A stretch of DNA of 64,000 nucleotides from Escherichia phage arall, in sequence record MN850584.1, one strand, 5' to 3'. The position numbers and the translations under genes were made by a program. The notes beneath the pieces are model-generated. The model was not told the DNA's origin. It searched no databases and was given only the letters and a program-made list of their open reading frames with translations. This document shows positions 11,260 to 58,834 of this stretch, one piece after another. How positions within the stretch are numbered: position 1 is the stretch's first letter; every line of letters starts with the position of its first letter.

Positions 11260-11505
11260 ATGAGAAAATTTTTAATAGGTATGTTTTGTACATATCCTGA
11301 TAATAAAGTCAGTTCTACTAAAGTTTGGAATGCTATTGGTATGATTGTTATGTCCAGTATGTTTATTTATTTGGGAATTGATAAAGAAATTCCTGAATGG
11401 ATGGGCTGGGCTTTTGTTTTTATGATCACACCATCCAGACTAATGAAGAATTTAATAGATTTACGTTGGGGCAGATCACCTGCCCCTGATAAGGAGGATA
11501 ACTAA
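11260..11505 (+). CDS. small membrane protein
   Basis: 81 aa; hydrophobic segment IGMIVMSSMFIYLGI, second WMGWAFVFMITP. Confidence 0.4.
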   Translation: MRKFLIGMFCTYPDNKVSSTKVWNAIGMIVMSSMFIYLGIDKEIPEWMGWAFVFMITPSRLMKNLIDLRWGRSPAPDKEDN

Positions 11506-15191: not shown

Positions 15192-15533
15192 ATGGAGCTA
15201 ACAGAAGTATGGGATATCGCTAAAGAGGCGATTATCCCTCTTATTGGCGTAATCTGGGTGGTCTTCAAACAGAAGATAGATGATATGGCAAGTGATTTGG
15301 ATAAAATGGAAGACAAATACCGCGAACTAGAAAAGAAGTTGGTGTTTGTTGAATCCACTTATGCTACCAAAGCAGAACTTGCTCAAATGCTTAACCAGAT
15401 CAACTCTACATTAATGGCAAATAATACTGCCTTAGAACAGAAGATTGAAAAAATAATGGATTTAAAAAATGCTCCTGTTCAATTAATGTTAGAGGAGATT
15501 ACAAAGCGCACACAAAGTAAGGACAAAAATTAA
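15192..15533 (+). CDS. membrane-anchored coiled-coil protein (possible lysis-associated XhlA-like or fiber accessory)
   Basis: 113 aa; one TM segment (AIIPLIGVIWVVF) followed by coiled coil. Confidence 0.35.
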   Translation: MELTEVWDIAKEAIIPLIGVIWVVFKQKIDDMASDLDKMEDKYRELEKKLVFVESTYATKAELAQMLNQINSTLMANNTALEQKIEKIMDLKNAPVQLMLEEITKRTQSKDKN

Positions 15534-34087: not shown

Positions 34088-34282
34088 CTATTGATTACGT
34101 TTTGCGAGTTCCATTTGGATAGCTAAACTGTGATCTCGTGCTTCCATATACTCTTTATATGTTTCATTAAGATGATCACGACAAACATCACGCAGTTTAA
34201 TCAGTTTATCTGTAGGGATACCACTAAGATCATCCCAAGATTTTACAACTTCACCAGTATCATTGATCCCAATGGTTTTCAT
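34088..34282 (-). CDS. hypothetical protein
   Basis: 64 aa ORF; overlaps the start region of neighbour. Confidence 0.35.
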   Translation of the reverse strand: MKTIGINDTGEVVKSWDDLSGIPTDKLIKLRDVCRDHLNETYKEYMEARDHSLAIQMELAKRNQ

Positions 34283-34490
34283 CTACAACCTCCTTAATTG
34301 CTACAGCACAGTTTTTGCAGATACACTGCCCTTTACCTTTAGAAATCTGGATGTAAGGTTCATTTTCATTTTCGCCCTTACGTGAGTCATATATTACAGT
34401 ATTGAAGCACACAACGCAAATATTTTTTAAGATTGTATACTTATCAACTTTCTTTTTTGTTTTAAAGTTAACTTCAATAACATCAGCCAT
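34260..34490 (-). CDS. small Cys-rich protein (possible zinc ribbon)
   Basis: 76 aa from ATG at 34490 (TGATG overlap with upstream stop); CVVC…CICKNC. Confidence 0.4.
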   Translation of the reverse strand: MADVIEVNFKTKKKVDKYTILKNICVVCFNTVIYDSRKGENENEPYIQISKGKGQCICKNCAVAIKEVVDENHWDQ

Positions 34491-34768
34491 CAGTGTAACA
34501 CTCCCAGTATGTTGTTTTGTGACATAACCATAGAACATTCAACATTATCGTGACTACGTGAAAAACGTTCCCAAACATCTTCATCGACTCGTAAAGCTAT
34601 ACAAGGATAGACGTTATCATTGATCATTTCAATTGAATAAACATCCACATTGTCTTCGTCTTCGATGAACATCATTGCAAACTGTTCTAAATGTTTCCTA
34701 ATGTAATGTACATCCTCTTCTGTAAGACCAATAACAAGATAACTTGCAACGATAACGCCATCTTTCAT
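34490..34768 (-). CDS. hypothetical protein
   Basis: 92 aa ORF, AAGGAGATATAG upstream. Confidence 0.4.
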   Translation of the reverse strand: MKDGVIVASYLVIGLTEEDVHYIRKHLEQFAMMFIEDEDNVDVYSIEMINDNVYPCIALRVDEDVWERFSRSHDNVECSMVMSQNNILGVLH

Positions 34769-34778
34769 CTATATCTCC

Positions 34779-35288
34779 TTAGCGATAGAATTGATGTTCT
34801 TTGTAGCGGTACACTAGAACCATATCTTTTTCCCAGTGTGCTCTTATTGTAGATTTTTTAAAGTATAATGCTCCTTTTGTAATATCTAATGCAATTCGTA
34901 ATTCTGGAAAATGGTTATCGAGATAAAGTAGACGTTCTGCTATAGCTTTAGCGTCTTTCCACTTATCGTGTTCCATAACGTTGAATGTCTTTGTGTAAGA
35001 GAATTGTCCTTTCTGAAACAAAACTTCTTTTATAGTATCAGGGAAATATGAATCTTTAGCCCTATTCAATACTACATTACCAACAGCAGACATACCGCGC
35101 TTTCCTTGATTACGACTTTCTGCATAGATTGCACAAGCTAATAGATTTTCTTTACTATCACGCTTTGTACACTTGTGAACTACTTTAGCAGTTTTTACGT
35201 TTGCAGCTTCGGCTTGCGCCACAACAGGTGTAAATGTAAAAGCAGTTAAGGATAGTAACGCAATTGCGACAAAGGTTTTTATTGACAA
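34779..35288 (-). CDS. secreted cell-wall hydrolase, SleB/Hydrolase_2-like (endolysin candidate)
   Basis: 169 aa; N-terminal Sec signal peptide (MSIKTFVAIALLSLTAFTFTPVVAQA/EA); CAIYAESRNQGKRGMSAVGNVVLNRAKD matches the SleB-type catalytic region; AGGAGG RBS. Confidence 0.55.
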   Translation of the reverse strand: MSIKTFVAIALLSLTAFTFTPVVAQAEAANVKTAKVVHKCTKRDSKENLLACAIYAESRNQGKRGMSAVGNVVLNRAKDSYFPDTIKEVLFQKGQFSYTKTFNVMEHDKWKDAKAIAERLLYLDNHFPELRIALDITKGALYFKKSTIRAHWEKDMVLVYRYKEHQFYR

Positions 35289-35380
35289 ACTTGCCTCCTA
35301 TTTTGTTAAACGAACTTTTATTGTAACACAGAAGAGGCTATTTTGCAAGTGGAGGGGGACTATCCCCCTCTTACACTCTG

Positions 35381-36035: not shown

Positions 36036-36632
36036 TTACTCGAACCAATCGTCGCCAGCGCCAAACGCTTTAACTACATCATAAATGTCAAGTCCAGCTT
36101 TACCTACACCATATGCTTTCAGTTTCCATTCACTATCTTCCCGCACCAGGGAGGCAACGTGGCAAATGGTATTACCTGCAAGTTCTGGAGCCAAGAAGTC
36201 AAAATCCAGCAGTTCAACGTTACGTTCATCATCGAAGATTTTAAGGAAACCTTCGGTAGCGTGACCAAGGCGTTTCTTACCCGTTTCGTCATCAATAGTA
36301 ATTACGAATGCAATTTCCTGTGCTTCAGCAGAGATATTATCCAGTGTAACATCAATCTGCTCCATTTGTCCTACACCGTCACGAACATCTTCACCTGCAA
36401 AAGTAGAACGTTCAGGGTCAAATTTCTGTGCGTAGCATACCAGGTGGCGAGGAGACAACAGTTCCGGCAGACCAGATGCATTGTGTCGGCAAATCAGAGC
36501 ACTAACATCCAGATCCAGTTTTTCGTTAGATTTCCAAGAGAATTCCAGACGAATGCGTTTCAGTGCTGGTGCAATCTTTTTCAGAGAAACTTTTTCGCTA
36601 GAACCTTTTTTCAGGGAAATTTTCTGAGTCAT
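36036..36632 (-). CDS. terD: TerD-family stress protein
   Basis: 198 aa; ISLKKGSSEKVSLKK, LDLDVSALIC, AGEDVRDGVGQMEQIDVTL, IAFVITIDDE, SEWKLKAYGVG align block by block with YceD/TerD proteins as I recall them. Confidence 0.65.
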   Translation of the reverse strand: MTQKISLKKGSSEKVSLKKIAPALKRIRLEFSWKSNEKLDLDVSALICRHNASGLPELLSPRHLVCYAQKFDPERSTFAGEDVRDGVGQMEQIDVTLDNISAEAQEIAFVITIDDETGKKRLGHATEGFLKIFDDERNVELLDFDFLAPELAGNTICHVASLVREDSEWKLKAYGVGKAGLDIYDVVKAFGAGDDWFE

Positions 36633-36704
36633 AATTTATTATCTCCTTTGTTGTTAATTTACGTTATCTATTTTACTAATCTTTTCTACAAAGTCAAGCG
36701 TTTT

Positions 36705-37499
36705 TTACGCTTTTGCTCCGAATTTTTTAACCCACTCGCCAAACTCTTCGGATAGCAGTTTATCGTAAAGTTCTTCGTCAGACAAGGACAAATCTGCAAT
36801 ACCGATAAAGTCAACGTTATCGTATTCTTTTGCCAAGTCTTTCAGGAATTTAAAGTTTGCATTACCTACACCAACCATAAACCAGTAAACAGGAGTGTTG
36901 CGGTGTTTGTTCAGCAAACTACGTACTGCTGAAGTATCCATGTTCTCCCCGTCAGTTTGGAAGAAAATCATTGCAGGAGTACGATCAACTTGTGCATCAG
37001 TATCTACAACCTGTTCTACAACAGTACGTGTAACTTCTACAAGTTCTTTTTTACCAGTTAGTTTAGCAAGGAAACCCTTAGCCGGAACTTCTTCATACTC
37101 AACGACTTCGCGTGTAATATTTTTCATAGGTACACTACCGAAGTATGTATCATAGATCTCTTGCATTACTGGAGCATAAGCTGTACCACCATTGATGCAA
37201 ACGTTAGACATACAAGAGCCGACATAATCATCATATACATCAGCCGTAGCAGGAGGCAGTTCAAAAGAAGAACTATTGAAAGCCCACATGTCAATCTGTG
37301 CATTATCATCAAACTTCATACCAAACGGCAGCAGCTTACCTACAAAATCACTAACAGTGCCATCACGATACAGCTCACACATACTACCCGAAATATCTAA
37401 GGCGCTACCGACACGAAGAACAACATCGTTAATCTTTTTCTTACGCAGAGATACGGTAAGAGTTTCTTGACGTTTTTTAAGACTGATTTTATTGGACAT
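36705..37499 (-). CDS. vWA-domain protein, TerF/TerY-like
   Basis: 264 aa; TerD-like N-terminal stretch (ISLKKRQETLTVSL) then vWA MIDAS motif DISGSM. Confidence 0.5.
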   Translation of the reverse strand: MSNKISLKKRQETLTVSLRKKKINDVVLRVGSALDISGSMCELYRDGTVSDFVGKLLPFGMKFDDNAQIDMWAFNSSSFELPPATADVYDDYVGSCMSNVCINGGTAYAPVMQEIYDTYFGSVPMKNITREVVEYEEVPAKGFLAKLTGKKELVEVTRTVVEQVVDTDAQVDRTPAMIFFQTDGENMDTSAVRSLLNKHRNTPVYWFMVGVGNANFKFLKDLAKEYDNVDFIGIADLSLSDEELYDKLLSEEFGEWVKKFGAKA

Positions 37500-37500
37500 A

Positions 37501-37770
37501 TTATTTCTCCTTTCTGAGTGTAATGTTAGTAACTTCTAAATCCACTTCTACCATTTCTGTATCATACGAAATACAGCTAAGTTGACCTCTTTGCGAACCG
37601 TTCAGACACATTGCTTGGTTTGTATTAACTTTAATAAACACTAAGTTTCTGAATGTATCTAAACCAGAATCTTGATAGGCAACATAATATACAAATGTAT
37701 CACCTGCGTCAAGTTCTCCAAAACATTTAGGTTCATCTGATTTGTCGTCTTTGATATTAAATTTAAGCAC
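37501..37770 (-). CDS. hypothetical protein
   Basis: 89 aa ORF; stop abuts the vWA gene start. Confidence 0.4.
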   Translation of the reverse strand: MLKFNIKDDKSDEPKCFGELDAGDTFVYYVAYQDSGLDTFRNLVFIKVNTNQAMCLNGSQRGQLSCISYDTEMVEVDLEVTNITLRKEK

Positions 37771-38326
37771 TGTCTTCTCCTTTACCTGCTCTCAAGCCTA
37801 AATAGAAAGCCTCTCTGGTGATCTTTTGCAACTCGTTTAAAGAGATAGTTACAACTAAATCATCTTCAATTTCTAGCTTTGAGTCTTCTTCTGTCTCAAT
37901 GCAAGTATTATGCACTTTGTGGTAAGGATTGTCAACACGTTTAAATTTATTATTTTCAGTGCTGAAGAAGCAATCTGGATCTTCTTCCCCATCACCCCAA
38001 CCCTGGTTAGGATCTTCTTCAGATCTTTCTGTTGGGATCTCGCCTGTAAAGTGCTCTTCTAATACCAGAGCAATCCCATCTCCAAGATCGGAAGAGAACA
38101 TCAAATTACAAACTTCTTCCCAAGGCATAGACCACTTAAATCTTTTACGATTGCCATGTTTATCTTCTTCGTTAGAGAAAACACTACCATAACTATCATA
38201 ATTCCCATACATCTCTTCGACAACCTTACCACCTTTCAAAAGAAATAGGTAGCAAGGAGAGCCATCGAAAGAGGTAGAAAGAGCAGCATTACCAGACTCT
38301 TTGCACAAGAAACTAAAACACCCCAT
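37763..38326 (-). CDS. hypothetical protein
   Basis: 187 aa; acidic C-terminal half; overlaps neighbour by 8 nt. Confidence 0.4.
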   Translation of the reverse strand: MGCFSFLCKESGNAALSTSFDGSPCYLFLLKGGKVVEEMYGNYDSYGSVFSNEEDKHGNRKRFKWSMPWEEVCNLMFSSDLGDGIALVLEEHFTGEIPTERSEEDPNQGWGDGEEDPDCFFSTENNKFKRVDNPYHKVHNTCIETEEDSKLEIEDDLVVTISLNELQKITREAFYLGLRAGKGEDSA

Positions 38327-38526
38327 TATACACCAGCCTTAAGATCAATTAAAGCCAAAGTTGTTTCAGAGTGTGTTTGCTCGTCTACAGGTGCAGTCAT
38401 ATGATAATACAAAAAATCTTCGGCATCATACCAATCTGATTCTTGACCTTGTTTCCAACCATCAATGAAAGCATCTTCCATAATGGTTTGCAATTCTTCA
38501 CGAGTTAAGTGAATATCTTTACTCAT
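38326..38526 (-). CDS. hypothetical protein
   Basis: 66 aa acidic ORF; ATGA overlap. Confidence 0.35.
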   Translation of the reverse strand: MSKDIHLTREELQTIMEDAFIDGWKQGQESDWYDAEDFLYYHMTAPVDEQTHSETTLALIDLKAGV

Positions 38527-38759
38527 TACACATTCTCCTCTTTTACCAATTCCATCGTTGAATTGTCAAAACCATCTTTAGAAGAATAGGTATAGACAGA
38601 ACGTAGTTCTCGCAGGACAGTGAATACATTAGGATCATCTAACCAAGCATCCTGGAGGAGAACATAACGATCTTCATTGTCATACTGAACAGCAATCATA
38701 GAACCAGACAGTTTGTAAATTTTAATATTCATAATATATTTCTCCTTAAAGTAGACCAC
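38526..38759 (-). CDS. hypothetical protein
   Basis: 77 aa ORF; true start may be the internal MNIKIYKL. Confidence 0.35.
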   Translation of the reverse strand: MVYFKEKYIMNIKIYKLSGSMIAVQYDNEDRYVLLQDAWLDDPNVFTVLRELRSVYTYSSKDGFDNSTMELVKEENV

Positions 38760-39849
38760 GTTTAACAGTTTGAATCATACCATCTTCAAGAGATTGCACT
38801 TCTTGAATGTAATCAATACGAGCAGCACGGGCTTCAGTGTTGATTCGGTTAGTTTCTTCCAACATTTTAACTAAGTTTTCTTGATCACGACGCAATGTTT
38901 CAATATCCAATACTTGACGATTAGCAAGTTGTGTAGCTTCAATCTGGTTTTGTGCAGCCAGATCACTACCCATTGCAATAGCAGCATTAAATTCATTCAG
39001 TACGTTGTTCTGTGTATCGGCTGCTTTCTTCTGGCGTAGACTTTCAATATACATAGAAAAGTTTGCAGAGTAAGCAGGAATAACATTATTCACAATATTA
39101 CGGGCTGATCGCATCAAACTTGCAGATACTTTCTGCATACTTTGTACACGTGGCCCCATCTGAACACATAGTAAGCGTAGGGCTTTCAGGTCTGCAATAC
39201 GAATTTCAAGCAGATCCATAGTATCACGAGTACGTTGACGCTCTTCTACCTCATTTTCAGGTAGTGTATTAAGGCGAATTTCTTCTTTTTCATAAGTAGC
39301 TGTTAGAAGCTCTATATCCCTGTTTAAGCTAAGGGCATATTTTGCAATAGCCTCTTCTAAACGTTGCAGATATCGTAAAGAATCTTCTTCTTTTTTCAAG
39401 TCTGTTTGGAGTGTCTTTACCAAACCTTCAATACGGTTATTGATGGTGTCAAATTCTCCAAACAAATCTTCTTTCATACCTAAAACTTTCTTAACTAGTT
39501 TACCTAAACCTTTAGATTGTTTAATAGAGTTAGGATCAAGTTGCTTTGCTTGCTTAATAAGTGCAGTTAAACGTTCACTCATTTCATCTCCCTGAGATGA
39601 ACGCTGGTGTTTAAGCACTTCAGCATTAAGGTTACGAAGAGTAAGTCCTGCATCAGCACCAACCTGTTCAATCTCTTCACGAGACATTGGAGGCAGCATT
39701 TGTACAGGGCGTGCAACAGCAGGGGCATATACAGGGCTTGCATCCATAGCACTTGGAGCAAACAAAGACTTACTTTTTTCTGTTGTTGCCGTGAATACAC
39801 TCATTTCAGACGGTTTGCTTTTTACGGCACTGATAAAAGGACTGGACAT
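38746..39849 (-). CDS. helical protein, TelA-like (toxic anion resistance family) candidate
   Basis: 367 aa; GGAGGA RBS; predicted all-helical with coiled-coil heptads; size and position between TerD and TerC as in yce-type operons; no motif confirmed. Confidence 0.35.
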   Translation of the reverse strand: MSSPFISAVKSKPSEMSVFTATTEKSKSLFAPSAMDASPVYAPAVARPVQMLPPMSREEIEQVGADAGLTLRNLNAEVLKHQRSSQGDEMSERLTALIKQAKQLDPNSIKQSKGLGKLVKKVLGMKEDLFGEFDTINNRIEGLVKTLQTDLKKEEDSLRYLQRLEEAIAKYALSLNRDIELLTATYEKEEIRLNTLPENEVEERQRTRDTMDLLEIRIADLKALRLLCVQMGPRVQSMQKVSASLMRSARNIVNNVIPAYSANFSMYIESLRQKKAADTQNNVLNEFNAAIAMGSDLAAQNQIEATQLANRQVLDIETLRRDQENLVKMLEETNRINTEARAARIDYIQEVQSLEDGMIQTVKRGLL

Positions 39850-39917
39850 TCAATTTCCTCCATATTCTTTAGTAGATGGTGATACCTCTGTACCACCATC
39901 ATAACACAAATTAAGTA

Positions 39918-40769
39918 TTAAACAAACATATCTAAATAATTTGTAGTAATAAATGCTCCATCTGCTTCCAGATTAACATAACCCGTGGTATTAGCAGTTA
40001 AGAAATCCAGATCGAAGGACTCTTTAACACCCCGTACCTCAACACGAGAGATATCGAATACAGGTAGTGTAACAGCCTCTTCGTGCAATACCGTACCTTT
40101 GTAGGTTGCCTTAATGATAAACTTGATATTACCTGTTCCAGCATCATATAAAACACTTTCAAACCCTTTGAGAGTATATTTATCACCAGAAGTGAAGTGC
40201 AAAGTTGCTTTGTTTACAGTACGTTTCTTACGAGGAGTTCCTTTCACACATTTATGATCACTACGTTTTTTGTATTTAGGAATGAATACAAACGATACAC
40301 TCTCAAGAAAGGTATCAACATCAAGGATTTTAATATCCTCTGTTGCAGCAAATTTTGAAGTCGTTGCATCAAAATGCTTTTCCCTGCGATCATACATAAA
40401 GATATCAAACCGATCTTCTAAATCAAACAAATTATGTATTTTAATTTCAGAATGCTTGCGCATTGCAGCAACCTTGAACTCTTCAAAACGTGGGTGTTCT
40501 ACAAGTTCTTCAAGTTTTACACCAAAGATAGTATATTGCTTCGAAGTCTTTTCTGGTGTTGGCATTACAGAAGCATAGTCCCCGATTGCGCTCTTAAAGC
40601 AAAATTGTTCTTGACCTGTATTTTTACCAACGAATTTACAGTATTCGTCATCGTGCATACTTTCCTTGGTAGTACCAACAAACTCAAAACCATCTTTATT
40701 CTTCTCAAGGATTTCTTGATTAAAGATCCAACCTTCCAGGCGATATACTTTACCAACTTCTAGTTTCAT
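39918..40769 (-). CDS. hypothetical protein
   Basis: 283 aa; GGAGAAACAG upstream. Confidence 0.45.
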   Translation of the reverse strand: MKLEVGKVYRLEGWIFNQEILEKNKDGFEFVGTTKESMHDDEYCKFVGKNTGQEQFCFKSAIGDYASVMPTPEKTSKQYTIFGVKLEELVEHPRFEEFKVAAMRKHSEIKIHNLFDLEDRFDIFMYDRREKHFDATTSKFAATEDIKILDVDTFLESVSFVFIPKYKKRSDHKCVKGTPRKKRTVNKATLHFTSGDKYTLKGFESVLYDAGTGNIKFIIKATYKGTVLHEEAVTLPVFDISRVEVRGVKESFDLDFLTANTTGYVNLEADGAFITTNYLDMFV

Positions 40770-40804
40770 CTGTTTCTCCTTCTTATTTAATCTGTATTAA
40801 ATTA

Positions 40805-41395
40805 TTAACGACGACGTGAGCTACTAAAACTACGTTTCGACGAAGAATAACTTTTCGAAGACTTACTATAAGAGCTAATAGGGCTTGAGTAAGACTTACG
40901 AGCAGAGTAATCACTATTCACTTTTGTTGTTGACGGGCGTGAATACGTTTGTACACTTTGCTGCTTAATTGTGTTTTGTTTAGTGGTTGTATATGTATTT
41001 CCTTGTTTATCATAAAAACTATGCTTTTGTGTTGTATATGCTTTACTGTTAGTTGTAGGAGCAGCGTTGTTATTAATAATTGTTGTGCTGCTACCACCAT
41101 CTCTATAACCGCCACCGCCACTATTACCACTCAACATATGACCAAGAAGCATACCTGTAGCAAACTCACCTACACCAGACGAACCACTGCCGCCTCCTTG
41201 CACAACAACTGTTGAAGGTTGTGCAGGTGCTGCTTGAACAACTTGAGGTGCAGGCTGGTTTACATATTGTTCATCTACCATCTGATTTGGTGTTTGTTGG
41301 TAACGTTGATTTTGTACATTTTCAGAATCATCACAACCTACCAGCAATGCACTACCTAAAACAACTGCAACAATAAAAGATTTAATGTTTTTCAT
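40805..41395 (-). CDS. lipoprotein with low-complexity Ser/Tyr/Lys-rich tail
   Basis: 196 aa from ATG at 41395 (GAGAGGG RBS); signal peptide with lipobox LVGC (MKNIKSFIVAVVLGSALLVGC); C-terminus YSSPISSYSKSSKSYSSSKRSFSSSRRR. Confidence 0.55.
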   Translation of the reverse strand: MKNIKSFIVAVVLGSALLVGCDDSENVQNQRYQQTPNQMVDEQYVNQPAPQVVQAAPAQPSTVVVQGGGSGSSGVGEFATGMLLGHMLSGNSGGGGYRDGGSSTTIINNNAAPTTNSKAYTTQKHSFYDKQGNTYTTTKQNTIKQQSVQTYSRPSTTKVNSDYSARKSYSSPISSYSKSSKSYSSSKRSFSSSRRR

Positions 41396-41588
41396 TTGTA
41401 ACCCTCTCATTTAAAGTCTCAACACAATTTTTAAAATCCCTAGAGAAACAATACATCTGTTCTCCGTTCCTGTTGATAGTAATTGTATGGTTATCAATAT
41501 ATGTTGTCAAGATAAAAATCAAACAAAACAACCCTAGAGCAAAACAAATATTTTCAAACAGAATCCAAAGAACACGTAAAACCACCAT
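41382..41588 (-). CDS. small membrane protein (candidate)
   Basis: 68 aa; GAGGTGA RBS; one hydrophobic helix (FALGLFCLIFILTTY); overlaps lipoprotein start by 14 nt. Confidence 0.3.
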   Translation of the reverse strand: MVVLRVLWILFENICFALGLFCLIFILTTYIDNHTITINRNGEQMYCFSRDFKNCVETLNERVTNEKH

Positions 41589-41599
41589 CAGATCACCTC

Positions 41600-41623
41600 A
41601 ACAAAGCCCCCCGAAGGGGCTTA
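41600..41623 (-). terminator. terminator-like hairpin after terC
   Basis: AAGCCCC-TTCGG-GGGGCTT on - strand; weak T-tract. Confidence 0.4.
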
Positions 41624-41628
41624 ATGAA

Positions 41629-42606
41629 TTAAGCAACAGTCTGGTCTTCTTTTTCAGGGAAGATTAAACTTGCAAGAACACCCAGCCCAAGAGTACCTAA
41701 CACAATATACATACTGATCGTCGGGTCAATGTGTGCTGGCAGGAAACTCATTTTTGCGTGCAGAGTTTCTGCAAACGGATGATACATCAGTTTTACACCA
41801 ACAAATACCAGGACTACGATAACTGCTTTCTCCAGATGAACCAAATACTTCAGTGCAACACTAAGAACAAAGAACAGAGCACGTAAACCTAAGATTGCAC
41901 AGAGCATCGAAGAGAACACCAGCAGAGGTTCTTGTGTCACTGCAATTACTGCTGGAACAGAGTCTACTGCAAAGATTACGTCAACCATTTCCATTACAAA
42001 CACACAAACCAGAGCCGGAGTTGCTACACGAACACCATTTTTTATTGTGAAGAACTTCTCACCATTCATCTGATCAGATACAGGGAACAGCTTACGAACA
42101 ATGCGAGTAGCCCAGTGTTTAGAGTAATCAACTTCTGCATCATCATCCCCAGCGAATACCATTTTAGCCGCACAGAAAAGGATGACAGCACCGAAGAAGA
42201 TATTAACATACCAGCCCAAACTCAACAAGTAAGTACCTACTGCTACAAACACACCTCGGAAGACAATCGCACCTGCAATACCCCAAAGTAGAATTTTGTG
42301 CTGCAAGTGTGTGCTTTTAATACCAAAACTTGCGAAGACTGCCACAAATACTACTAAGTTATCTACAGAAAGAGATTTCTCCAACACATACCCACTCAAG
42401 AACAAGCTCGCAAAATCAGCACCGTGTTGGAAGTATACAAAACCATAGTAGGCTAATGATACCCCAATCCAGAAAATTGACCAGCCAATTGCAGATTTAA
42501 ATGAAATTTCTTTGTTTTCTCTGTGTCCAAAGAAGTCAATACAAATCGACAAGACTAAAATACCCACTAAAACAACCACATCAATAATTGGGAAACCCAG
42601 TTGCAT
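41629..42606 (-). CDS. terC: TerC-family integral membrane protein
   Basis: 325 aa; multiple TM helices; hallmark YVLEKSLSVDNLVVFVAVF (E-x-SLSVDN); AGGAGA RBS. Confidence 0.7.
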   Translation of the reverse strand: MQLGFPIIDVVVLVGILVLSICIDFFGHRENKEISFKSAIGWSIFWIGVSLAYYGFVYFQHGADFASLFLSGYVLEKSLSVDNLVVFVAVFASFGIKSTHLQHKILLWGIAGAIVFRGVFVAVGTYLLSLGWYVNIFFGAVILFCAAKMVFAGDDDAEVDYSKHWATRIVRKLFPVSDQMNGEKFFTIKNGVRVATPALVCVFVMEMVDVIFAVDSVPAVIAVTQEPLLVFSSMLCAILGLRALFFVLSVALKYLVHLEKAVIVVLVFVGVKLMYHPFAETLHAKMSFLPAHIDPTISMYIVLGTLGLGVLASLIFPEKEDQTVA

Positions 42607-42946: not shown

Positions 42947-43153
42947 TTATTTGTTAGATTGAAAGATACCACGGAGTACCGCAAGAATGAACGTCACACA
43001 GACTACACTCCAAAACGTTACAGGAACATGATGCCAGTCTAAGCCGATAATGTCAATCATATAGTTGTATGCTAAAAGCAGTAGCCAACTAGGGATTAAC
43101 ACAATCAAAAACACAACAATAAAACAACCTAATACTGCTAAAACACCTGCCAT
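42947..43153 (-). CDS. small two-TM membrane protein
   Basis: 68 aa; two hydrophobic helices; GGAGAAAG RBS. Confidence 0.4.
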   Translation of the reverse strand: MAGVLAVLGCFIVVFLIVLIPSWLLLLAYNYMIDIIGLDWHHVPVTFWSVVCVTFILAVLRGIFQSNK

Positions 43154-58567: not shown

Positions 58568-58834
58568 CTAATTACTGTTAGATCTGTATTCTGTCTTCCA
58601 TTCACAATGGTAAACTTCAACAGGTTCTAACTTCCAATGTTCAGGAACTAATTCAGGACAATATCTACAAAAGAGAAATAGATAGATAACTAAGACAGGT
58701 ATTAAATAGTAAAATGGTATACGATCATAACCATACTTACGAGATAACATGTAGACGTATAGATAGGGTATAACAATTAATCCTATAACTATAAGTAAGA
58801 AGAGAAGTATAAACCTTAGTGTAGTAACATCCAT
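58568..58834 (-). CDS. small two-TM membrane protein
   Basis: 88 aa; AGGAGA RBS; two hydrophobic helices. Confidence 0.45.
   Translation of the reverse strand: MDVTTLRFILLFLLIVIGLIVIPYLYVYMLSRKYGYDRIPFYYLIPVLVIYLFLFCRYCPELVPEHWKLEPVEVYHCEWKTEYRSNSN

Follow-up and report, generated by a model that had tools for sequence, protein, structure and literature searches.

The SleB/CwlJ-like gene of the window, the whole 64-kb stretch of DNA analysed here, most likely encodes a periplasmic lytic transglycosylase that, judging from its sequence, would be exported through the Sec pathway and processed by signal peptidase. The gene is the same as that for phi92 gp170 (YP_009012502.1), from which it differs in nothing material, and its product (hereafter gp170) is a second, probably exported wall enzyme of the phage, not the only one. 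Our best overall explanation, to which we give an even chance, is that exported gp170 would aid lysis beside a T4-type lysozyme. Over the window, identity is 98.7% with Escherichia phage ALITA and 98.3% with phi92 (Justusliebigvirus, Stephanstirmvirinae), and the window represents less than half of a phi92-like genome of about 147 kb. Orthologues that are 97-99% identical occur in about 55 genomes, and annotators have labelled them 'endolysin' (RefSeq), 'putative cell wall hydrolase' or 'hypothetical protein'. The gene is already known and annotated, and the signal peptide and the orphan position have been described previously for homologs.

Sequence family, fold and signal peptide

gp170 matches the Pfam family Hydrolase_2 (PF07486) with a score of 71.7 bits against a cut-off of 27 (E 8.6e-20); the match covers residues 61-168 and profile positions 2-100 of 100. 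The PHROG match is phrog_938, 'endolysin'. A search of PDB sequences gave matches to the SleB catalytic domains 4f55 and 4fet and to nothing else. In an AlphaFold2 model, pLDDT exceeded 90 over residues 33-169 and was lower than 50 over residues 1-32, the part with the predicted signal peptide, which is disordered in the model. Foldseek aligned the model with the same two catalytic domains (probability 1.00, target-normalised TM 0.72-0.74, rmsd 2.8-2.9) and with no other significant structure. In a sequence comparison, Glu57 was aligned to the glutamate of the SleB YGESRG motif. Among the aligned relatives, Glu57 and Arg76 are each found in 146 of 146 sequences and Asn75 in 143 of 146. In SleB, the aligned glutamate is essential for lytic transglycosylase activity (PMC12331253). 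The Hydrolase_2 match, the SleB fold and the invariant Glu57 bear out the original prediction of a SleB-like cell-wall hydrolase at 34779-35288, and it is highly probable, from family and fold, that gp170 would be a muralytic enzyme.

gp170 is not SleB proper, however. The SleB equivalog model TIGR02869 gave 52.3 bits against a cut-off of 236.5 and was matched at model positions 81-199 only, and a Pfam scan found Hydrolase_2 alone, with no N-terminal peptidoglycan-binding domain. Thus, gp170 is a member of Hydrolase_2 and not a SleB orthologue. It has in common with Bacillus SleB/CwlJ (4f55, 4fet) the catalytic fold and the essential Glu in Y-x-E-S/A-R, but it lacks the N-terminal peptidoglycan-binding domain of SleB and any spore or YpeB context. 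SleB requires muramic-delta-lactam, which is absent from the peptidoglycan of E. coli. The substrate of gp170 cannot be muramic-delta-lactam cortex, and action of the enzyme on the host wall is an assumption.

Table 1. Features of the gp170 locus, the Ter-type cluster and candidate lysis genes; positions are those of the window
Feature	Position	Strand	Basis or remark
Protein of one N-terminal TMD and coiled coil	15192-15533	+	weak Rz-like spanin PHROG match
81-aa protein, two hydrophobic segments, charged C-terminal tail	11260-11505	+	phrog_1322 'membrane protein'
Three small soluble genes, phi92 gp169/gp168/gp167 orthologues	34088..34768	-	downstream of gp170 orthologue
SleB/CwlJ-like (Hydrolase_2) cell-wall hydrolase gene, 169-aa precursor	34779..35288	-	phi92 gp170 orthologue
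Predicted mature periplasmic enzyme, 143 aa, 16.7 kDa, pI 9.6	34782..35210	-	sequence, model
Putative catalytic Glu57 codon	35118-35120	-	alignment to SleB
Predicted Sec-type signal peptide MSIKTFVAIALLSLTAFTFTPVVAQA, codons 1-26, predicted cleavage AQA/EA	35211..35288	-	rules and homologs
TTG start codon	35286-35288	-	same TTG in 9 lineages
Ribosome-binding site AGGAGG	35294..35299	-	5 nt ahead of TTG; conserved
Sigma-70-type promoter-like site TTGCAA-17-TACAAT, extended -10 TG	35320..35348	-	sequence and conservation
8-bp GC hairpin GAGGGGGA-nnn-TCCCCCTC	35352..35370	-	between upstream gene's stop and -35 hexamer
TerD	36036-36632	-	Ter-type cluster
vWA-TerF	36705-37499	-	Ter-type cluster
TelA-like gene	38746-39849	-	Ter-type cluster
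TerC	41629-42606	-	Ter-type cluster
Membrane protein, 68 aa, two TMDs	42947-43153		without family assignment
Membrane protein, 88 aa, two TMDs	58568-58834		without family assignment

Signal peptides were called with a strict rule set applied to the 96 non-overlapping ORFs of the window, with shuffled N-termini as the control. Two ORFs passed, against about 0.5 expected from the shuffled N-termini: gp170 and the lipoprotein at 40805-41410 (LLVG/C). In gp170 a positively charged n-region (MSIK) is followed by an uncharged hydrophobic core (FVAIALLSLTAFTF) and then by TPVVAQA/EA, with Pro at -6, an A-X-A motif at -3/-1 and an acidic residue at +1. The N-terminus thus reads MSIK, TFVAIALLSLTAFTF, TPVVAQA/EAANVK; a second possible cleavage site is VVA/QA. 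A lipoprotein or a Tat-exported protein was rejected, as neither a Cys nor an RR occurs in residues 1-26.

The signal peptide is kept in 19 of 19 close homologs (61-98% identity). Within this close family the mean pairwise identity is 83% in the h-region, 70% in the mature part and 48% in the c-region, which is the least conserved part of the protein and in which the small residues at -3 and -1 are nevertheless retained; this is the pattern expected for a cleaved signal. Canonical, cleavable-looking signals are also found in independent phage lineages, with the sites VVA/AP in rV5-like phages, ALA/KE in CB7 and SQA/SH in orf081 of the T5-like phage AKFV33. By a crude heuristic, 123 of 170 homologs gathered in two protein searches were signal-peptide-like and 12 carried a lipobox. 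Cys40 and Cys52 of gp170 are invariant in the close family, and the number of cysteines in the mature part is mostly even among relatives (two in 80 of 146), as fits a disulfide-bonded exported protein; Cys40 and Cys52 probably form a periplasmic disulfide. The classical, cleavable-looking Sec signal with an AQA/EA site that had been noticed at this gene is therefore supported both by the rule set, which only two of the 96 ORFs pass, and by its retention in homologs. Export of gp170 by the Sec pathway is highly probable, and cleavage of the predicted signal is probable.

The same N-terminal segment could be read as that of a SAR-type or otherwise membrane-tethered endolysin, in which it would stay uncleaved and the enzyme inactive in the inner membrane until depolarisation releases it. 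A long uncharged stretch of about 20 residues (positions 5-24), an h-region more conserved in the close family than any other part and a Pakpunavirus homolog with an N-terminal anchor but no obvious cleavage site are all consistent with this reading, and the type of a signal has been mispredicted in the past, as for T4 RI (PMC8385771). We nevertheless consider it unlikely: the cleavage site is a canonical A-X-A with Pro at -6, the c-regions of homologs vary yet keep their small -3/-1 residues, the segment has neither Gly nor a Cys for disulfide caging, and the acidic first residue of the mature part favours export and processing. The SAR endolysins P1 Lyz, phage 21 R21 and Mu gp22 share with gp170 a Sec-dependent, holin-independent transport, which in gp170 is predicted. 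Their SAR domains, however, are uncleaved, and the release step regulates activity, whereas the signal-peptidase site of gp170 is maintained across homologs. Conservation of the h-region above that of the mature part could imply a role beyond that of a disposable export tag.

Expression signals and gene neighbourhood

The TTG start of gp170, 5 nt after AGGAGG, is invariant across nine lineages with 61-100% protein identity. Selection seems to act on this weak start, perhaps to hold down the expression of a toxic exported enzyme. In the promoter-like site upstream (Table 1), TTGC and TGnTAnAnT are kept in nine of nine divergent lineages while the spacer drifts, and the site is also conserved in a Phapecoctavirus. 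So is the GC hairpin, which abuts the -35 hexamer and has no U-tract; no terminator was called there. In ALITA, equally good sigma-70-like sites precede early-region and structural genes alike, and the promoter was for this reason rejected as a clue to the timing of gp170. No useful transcriptome, whether of a Vequintavirus or of a phi92-like phage, turned up in the literature searched.

Between 35169 and 35273 (-), about codons 6-40, the gene forms a near-identical nucleotide island (93-100%) with a Phapecoctavirus, the rest of the gene being 60-80% identical. In the nine lineages, 623 of the 926 codon pairs compared over codons 6-45 are the same codon, against 419 expected from the per-amino-acid rates in the remainder of the gene. 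Phe is encoded only by TTT and Leu only by TTA or CTA in the region that codes for the signal peptide; in the mature part Phe is mostly TTC. The signal-peptide coding regions of exported proteins show a bias to non-optimal, AU-rich codons. The pattern in gp170 fits this bias, and it also fits selection that caps a potentially toxic enzyme. An mRNA structure was rejected as the source of the conservation, with a single-sequence z of -0.40, an RNAalifold consensus over codons 6-45 of only -4.8 kcal/mol and compensatory changes that come from one sister pair, and no overlapping ORF of at least 30 aa was found over these codons.

The gp170 gene is placed between the Ter-type cluster and glycosyltransferase and replication genes. 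The phage-borne Ter-type cluster spans 36036-42606 (-). The order vWA-TerF, TerD, (gp171), SleB-like gene is kept in eight divergent phage contigs, and in divergent relatives the SleB-like gene always lies one or two genes downstream of TerD. On its other side, the phi92 gp168 orthologue (34260-34538, -) has a pair of CxxC motifs (CVVC...CKNC) in the manner of a small zinc ribbon, and gp168 or an equivalent of 72-76 aa is found within two genes after the SleB-like gene in all the related contigs. The stretch 40805-41588 (-) holds a 201-aa lipoprotein (LLVG/C) in which the Asp at +2 is a signal for retention in the inner membrane, and a 68-aa single-TMD gene overlaps the start of the lipoprotein gene; both are immediately downstream of TerC.

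As the original prediction had it, gp170 has no adjacent holin; nor does a spanin gene adjoin it, and the neighbours on both sides lack TM segments. On the same strand, the nearest small ORF with two TMDs lies at a distance of 7.7 kb. The three small ORFs at 34088-34768 had been described as upstream genes for non-membrane proteins. They are indeed non-membrane proteins: no hydrophobic segment was found in them, nor in the product of the 200-aa gene that flanks gp170 opposite them. In the direction of transcription, however, they lie downstream of gp170. Since the lysis genes of this phage group are dispersed (PMC7344957, PMC12210895, PMC6658697), the lack of a holin gene next to gp170 says little.

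In the rV5-like phage that we inspected (gene at 2495-2995), the SleB-like gene ends in a stop codon that overlaps the rIIA start, rIIB comes after rIIA, and rIIA was found under the same match in most of 116 rV5-like records. This coupling of the SleB-like gene to rIIA suggests co-expression with genes for membrane integrity and lysis timing. The rV5-like coupling to rIIA/rIIB is absent from the gp170 locus, as is the arrangement in CB7-like phages, where the SleB-like gene overlaps a gene for a 2-TMD holin candidate.

The position of gp170 in its gene block hints at early expression and perhaps at a role other than lysis. It is possible, though we are doubtful, that gp170 is a periplasmic wall-remodelling effector of early or mid infection that stands outside the lysis machinery, the T4-type lysozyme being the true endolysin. 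Remodelling could serve the control of envelope or membrane integrity together with rII or Ter proteins, cell enlargement, the passage of an envelope-spanning complex or interference with superinfection. Such a role would suit a gene that sits among replication, Ter and glycosyltransferase genes and not among late genes, with a vWA-TerF/TerD synteny fixed in the eight divergent contigs, a conserved weak TTG start, a stop codon that overlaps rIIA in an rV5-like phage and a T5-like homolog in the early region (PMC3326045). Moreover, a canonical endolysin accompanies the SleB-like protein in every lineage checked, namely phi92-like phages, Phapecoctavirus, Certrevirus, Septuagintavirus, T5-like phages and PVP-SE1, of which the characterised endolysin is gp146 and not the gp243 homolog (PMC3352856). 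Against this, T4 e is also found among non-late genes, the sigma-70-like promoters in ALITA carry no timing signal, no function other than lysis is known for phage Hydrolase_2 proteins, and the Pakpunavirus homologs are annotated as endolysin.

A broader form of this idea, which we put forward tentatively, is that SleB-like proteins with a signal peptide are a distinct, unrecognised class of periplasmic effectors that would condition the sacculus or envelope rather than act in terminal lysis. Equally tentative is the suggestion that those of T5-, rV5-, PVP-SE1- and phi92-like phages would be low-level lytic transglycosylases of early or mid infection. These might act with rII or Ter-type membrane proteins. 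If so, capped expression would explain both the invariant TTG and the synonymous constraint on codons 6-45.

Other lysis genes of the window and the genome

A signal-less T4 e-type lysozyme of 166 aa (Phage_lysozyme, PF00959) is encoded in ALITA at 123277-123777, which is outside the window. Its gene was found at an identity of at least 95% in 55 phage records, and the SleB-like region was matched at at least 95% in the same number of records, 55. In JohannJBalmer, the BASEL label 'endolysin' is that of the T4 e-type lysozyme gene; for PaulScherrer, no feature under the match in which the SleB-like gene lies is labelled as an endolysin or a hydrolase. Within the window, gp170 had been called the only recognisable peptidoglycan hydrolase. 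This agrees with our results: the 38 of the 96 ORFs that were scanned with Pfam, among them 20 from the structural module, contained no other peptidoglycan-hydrolase domain, and the ALITA annotation of the region that matches the window contains no second peptidoglycan hydrolase.

The further claim, that lysis would depend on Sec export of gp170 rather than on a holin, makes gp170 the sole or main endolysin. The absence of another hydrolase from the window, the RefSeq label 'endolysin' and the lack of an adjoining holin gene all lean that way. The claim is not supported by the comparison with other genomes, however, as the T4 e-type lysozyme gene lies outside the window in ALITA and in all 55 of 55 near-identical relatives, and the BASEL curators call that gene, not the gp170 gene, the endolysin. 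Known endolysins with a signal peptide, such as Lys44 of fOg44 and Lys of the Campylobacter phage F352, still require a holin for activation (PMC6116005, PMC7692668). Given a second lysozyme outside the window, export of gp170 is no proof of holin-free lysis, and we regard holin-independent lysis by gp170 as very improbable.

It is more improbable still that gp170 is a virion-associated lysin that serves DNA injection. A second muralytic enzyme in the virion is common among phages, but a Sec signal would take gp170 out of the cytoplasm, where virions are assembled, and its gene lies outside the structural module. In addition, the homolog CB7_83 is not part of the virion proteome of CB7, in which the sole protein from that region is CB7_55.

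Three loci had been singled out as holin-like (15192-15533, 42947-43153 and 58568-58834). All three encode membrane proteins, and those at 42947-43153 and 58568-58834 have the two TMDs listed in Table 1; the product of 15192-15533, however, looks more Rz- or spanin-like than holin-like. Its gene (+) has the database label 'lipoprotein' but no lipobox in its product, and it lies between the tail-fibre chaperone and tailspike genes. An i-spanin-like protein of ALITA, which has a TMD at its N-terminus together with a coiled coil, is encoded next to the large terminase, outside the window, and phi92 is listed with phages that have two-component spanins (PMC6139136). The product of 11260-11505 is a plausible class II holin candidate. 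The gene is inside the late tail-fibre module and was absent from the holin candidates named originally; for BME3, an 81-residue class II candidate has been mentioned. Pfam, PHROG and NCBIfam searches gave no holin assignment for the small membrane proteins of the window. The small membrane proteins that are candidates for the holin are scattered in the genome.

Proposed mechanism and comparison with known systems

Under the preferred reading, in which gp170 aids lysis beside the T4-type lysozyme, the classical signal peptide would target the precursor to SecYEG and signal peptidase I would cut it after AQA26. The basic mature enzyme of 143 aa may then fold in the periplasm, where a Cys40-Cys52 disulfide would probably form. 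With a promoter of its own and a weak, invariant TTG start, the gene would yield small amounts of gp170, which could accumulate in the periplasm without causing lysis, like the lytic transglycosylases of the host itself. Low expression and an energised membrane would probably keep the enzyme harmless. On the model of Lys44 and F352 Lys, gp170 would join in the destruction of the sacculus when a holin collapses the membrane potential, and it would act alongside the T4-type lysozyme freed through the holin holes. Whether gp170 makes a real contribution to lysis is, in our estimate, evenly balanced.

Exported ('e-') endolysins, whose signals are cleavable, form an established class. The closest precedents for such a sequence of events are Lys44 of the Oenococcus phage fOg44 and Lys of the Campylobacter Fletchervirus F352, muralytic enzymes that both have a cleavable Sec signal, as is predicted for gp170, and lysis genes that form no cassette. 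Lys44 builds up in its processed form in the wall compartment, and it is inactive there as long as the membrane potential has not collapsed (PMC6116005). F352 Lys is a lytic transglycosylase with a signal peptide, which in E. coli needs Sec and its own holin, and it resembles gp170 also in the type of activity, which in gp170 is predicted, and in its Gram-negative host (PMC7692668). The catalytic families differ, however, with SLT (PF01464) or lysozyme in F352 and fOg44 and Hydrolase_2 in gp170. Furthermore, Lys44 and Lys are the only endolysins of fOg44 and F352, whereas gp170 coexists with a cytoplasmic T4-type lysozyme. T4 gp e, too, is a small phage muralytic enzyme of a single domain, with its gene at a distance from that of the holin. 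It is, however, a cytoplasmic GH24 enzyme that depends on a holin, and the phi92-like phages encode an e-type lysozyme of their own at another place in the genome.

Orthologues of gp170 are found in Justusliebigvirus and Phapecoctavirus, and more distant relatives are PVP-SE1 gp243, the rV5 'SleB', CB7_83, CR3_087 and T5.083/AKFV33 orf081. Common to all of these are the size, the signal peptide, the Hydrolase_2 domain, a separate canonical endolysin and the lack of a lysis cassette. The combination of a SleB-like protein with a signal peptide, a separate endolysin and no cassette has been described for rV5-, PVP-SE1-, CB7-, T5- and phi92-like phages. The Certrevirus CB7 has a second peptidoglycan hydrolase and no classic lysis cassette; homologs of CB7_83 occur in all genera of Vequintavirinae, the CB7 homolog, for which a signal peptide is predicted, is toxic on expression in E. 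coli, and CR3_087 has been implicated in lysis (PMC7344957). P7_Pc and Septuagintavirus have been described in terms like those for CB7, and the Phapecoctavirus iGC_PHA_EC001 similarly. For T5-like phages, a SleB-domain 'endolysin far from holin' has been reported, and the authors state openly that which of the two enzymes the phage actually uses is unknown (PMC11180984).

The rV5-, phi92-, PVP-SE1- and T5-like phages are large groups of virulent phages of Enterobacteria, are in use for therapy and biocontrol, and have two wall-degrading enzymes each. If gp170 aids lysis, it would be a coliphage signal-peptide endolysin that works beside a canonical one; if it plays no part in lysis, it points to a periplasmic function during infection. 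A small basic muralytic enzyme that is predicted to cross the inner membrane unaided would be relevant to enzybiotic design and to cloning, on both of which the toxicity of the CB7 homolog in E. coli also bears. Finally, several records labelled 'Campylobacter phage' (MG065639, MG065647, MG065644 and others) are 97-99% identical to genes of phi92- or rV5-like coliphages, and the C. jejuni host labels of these records look doubtful.
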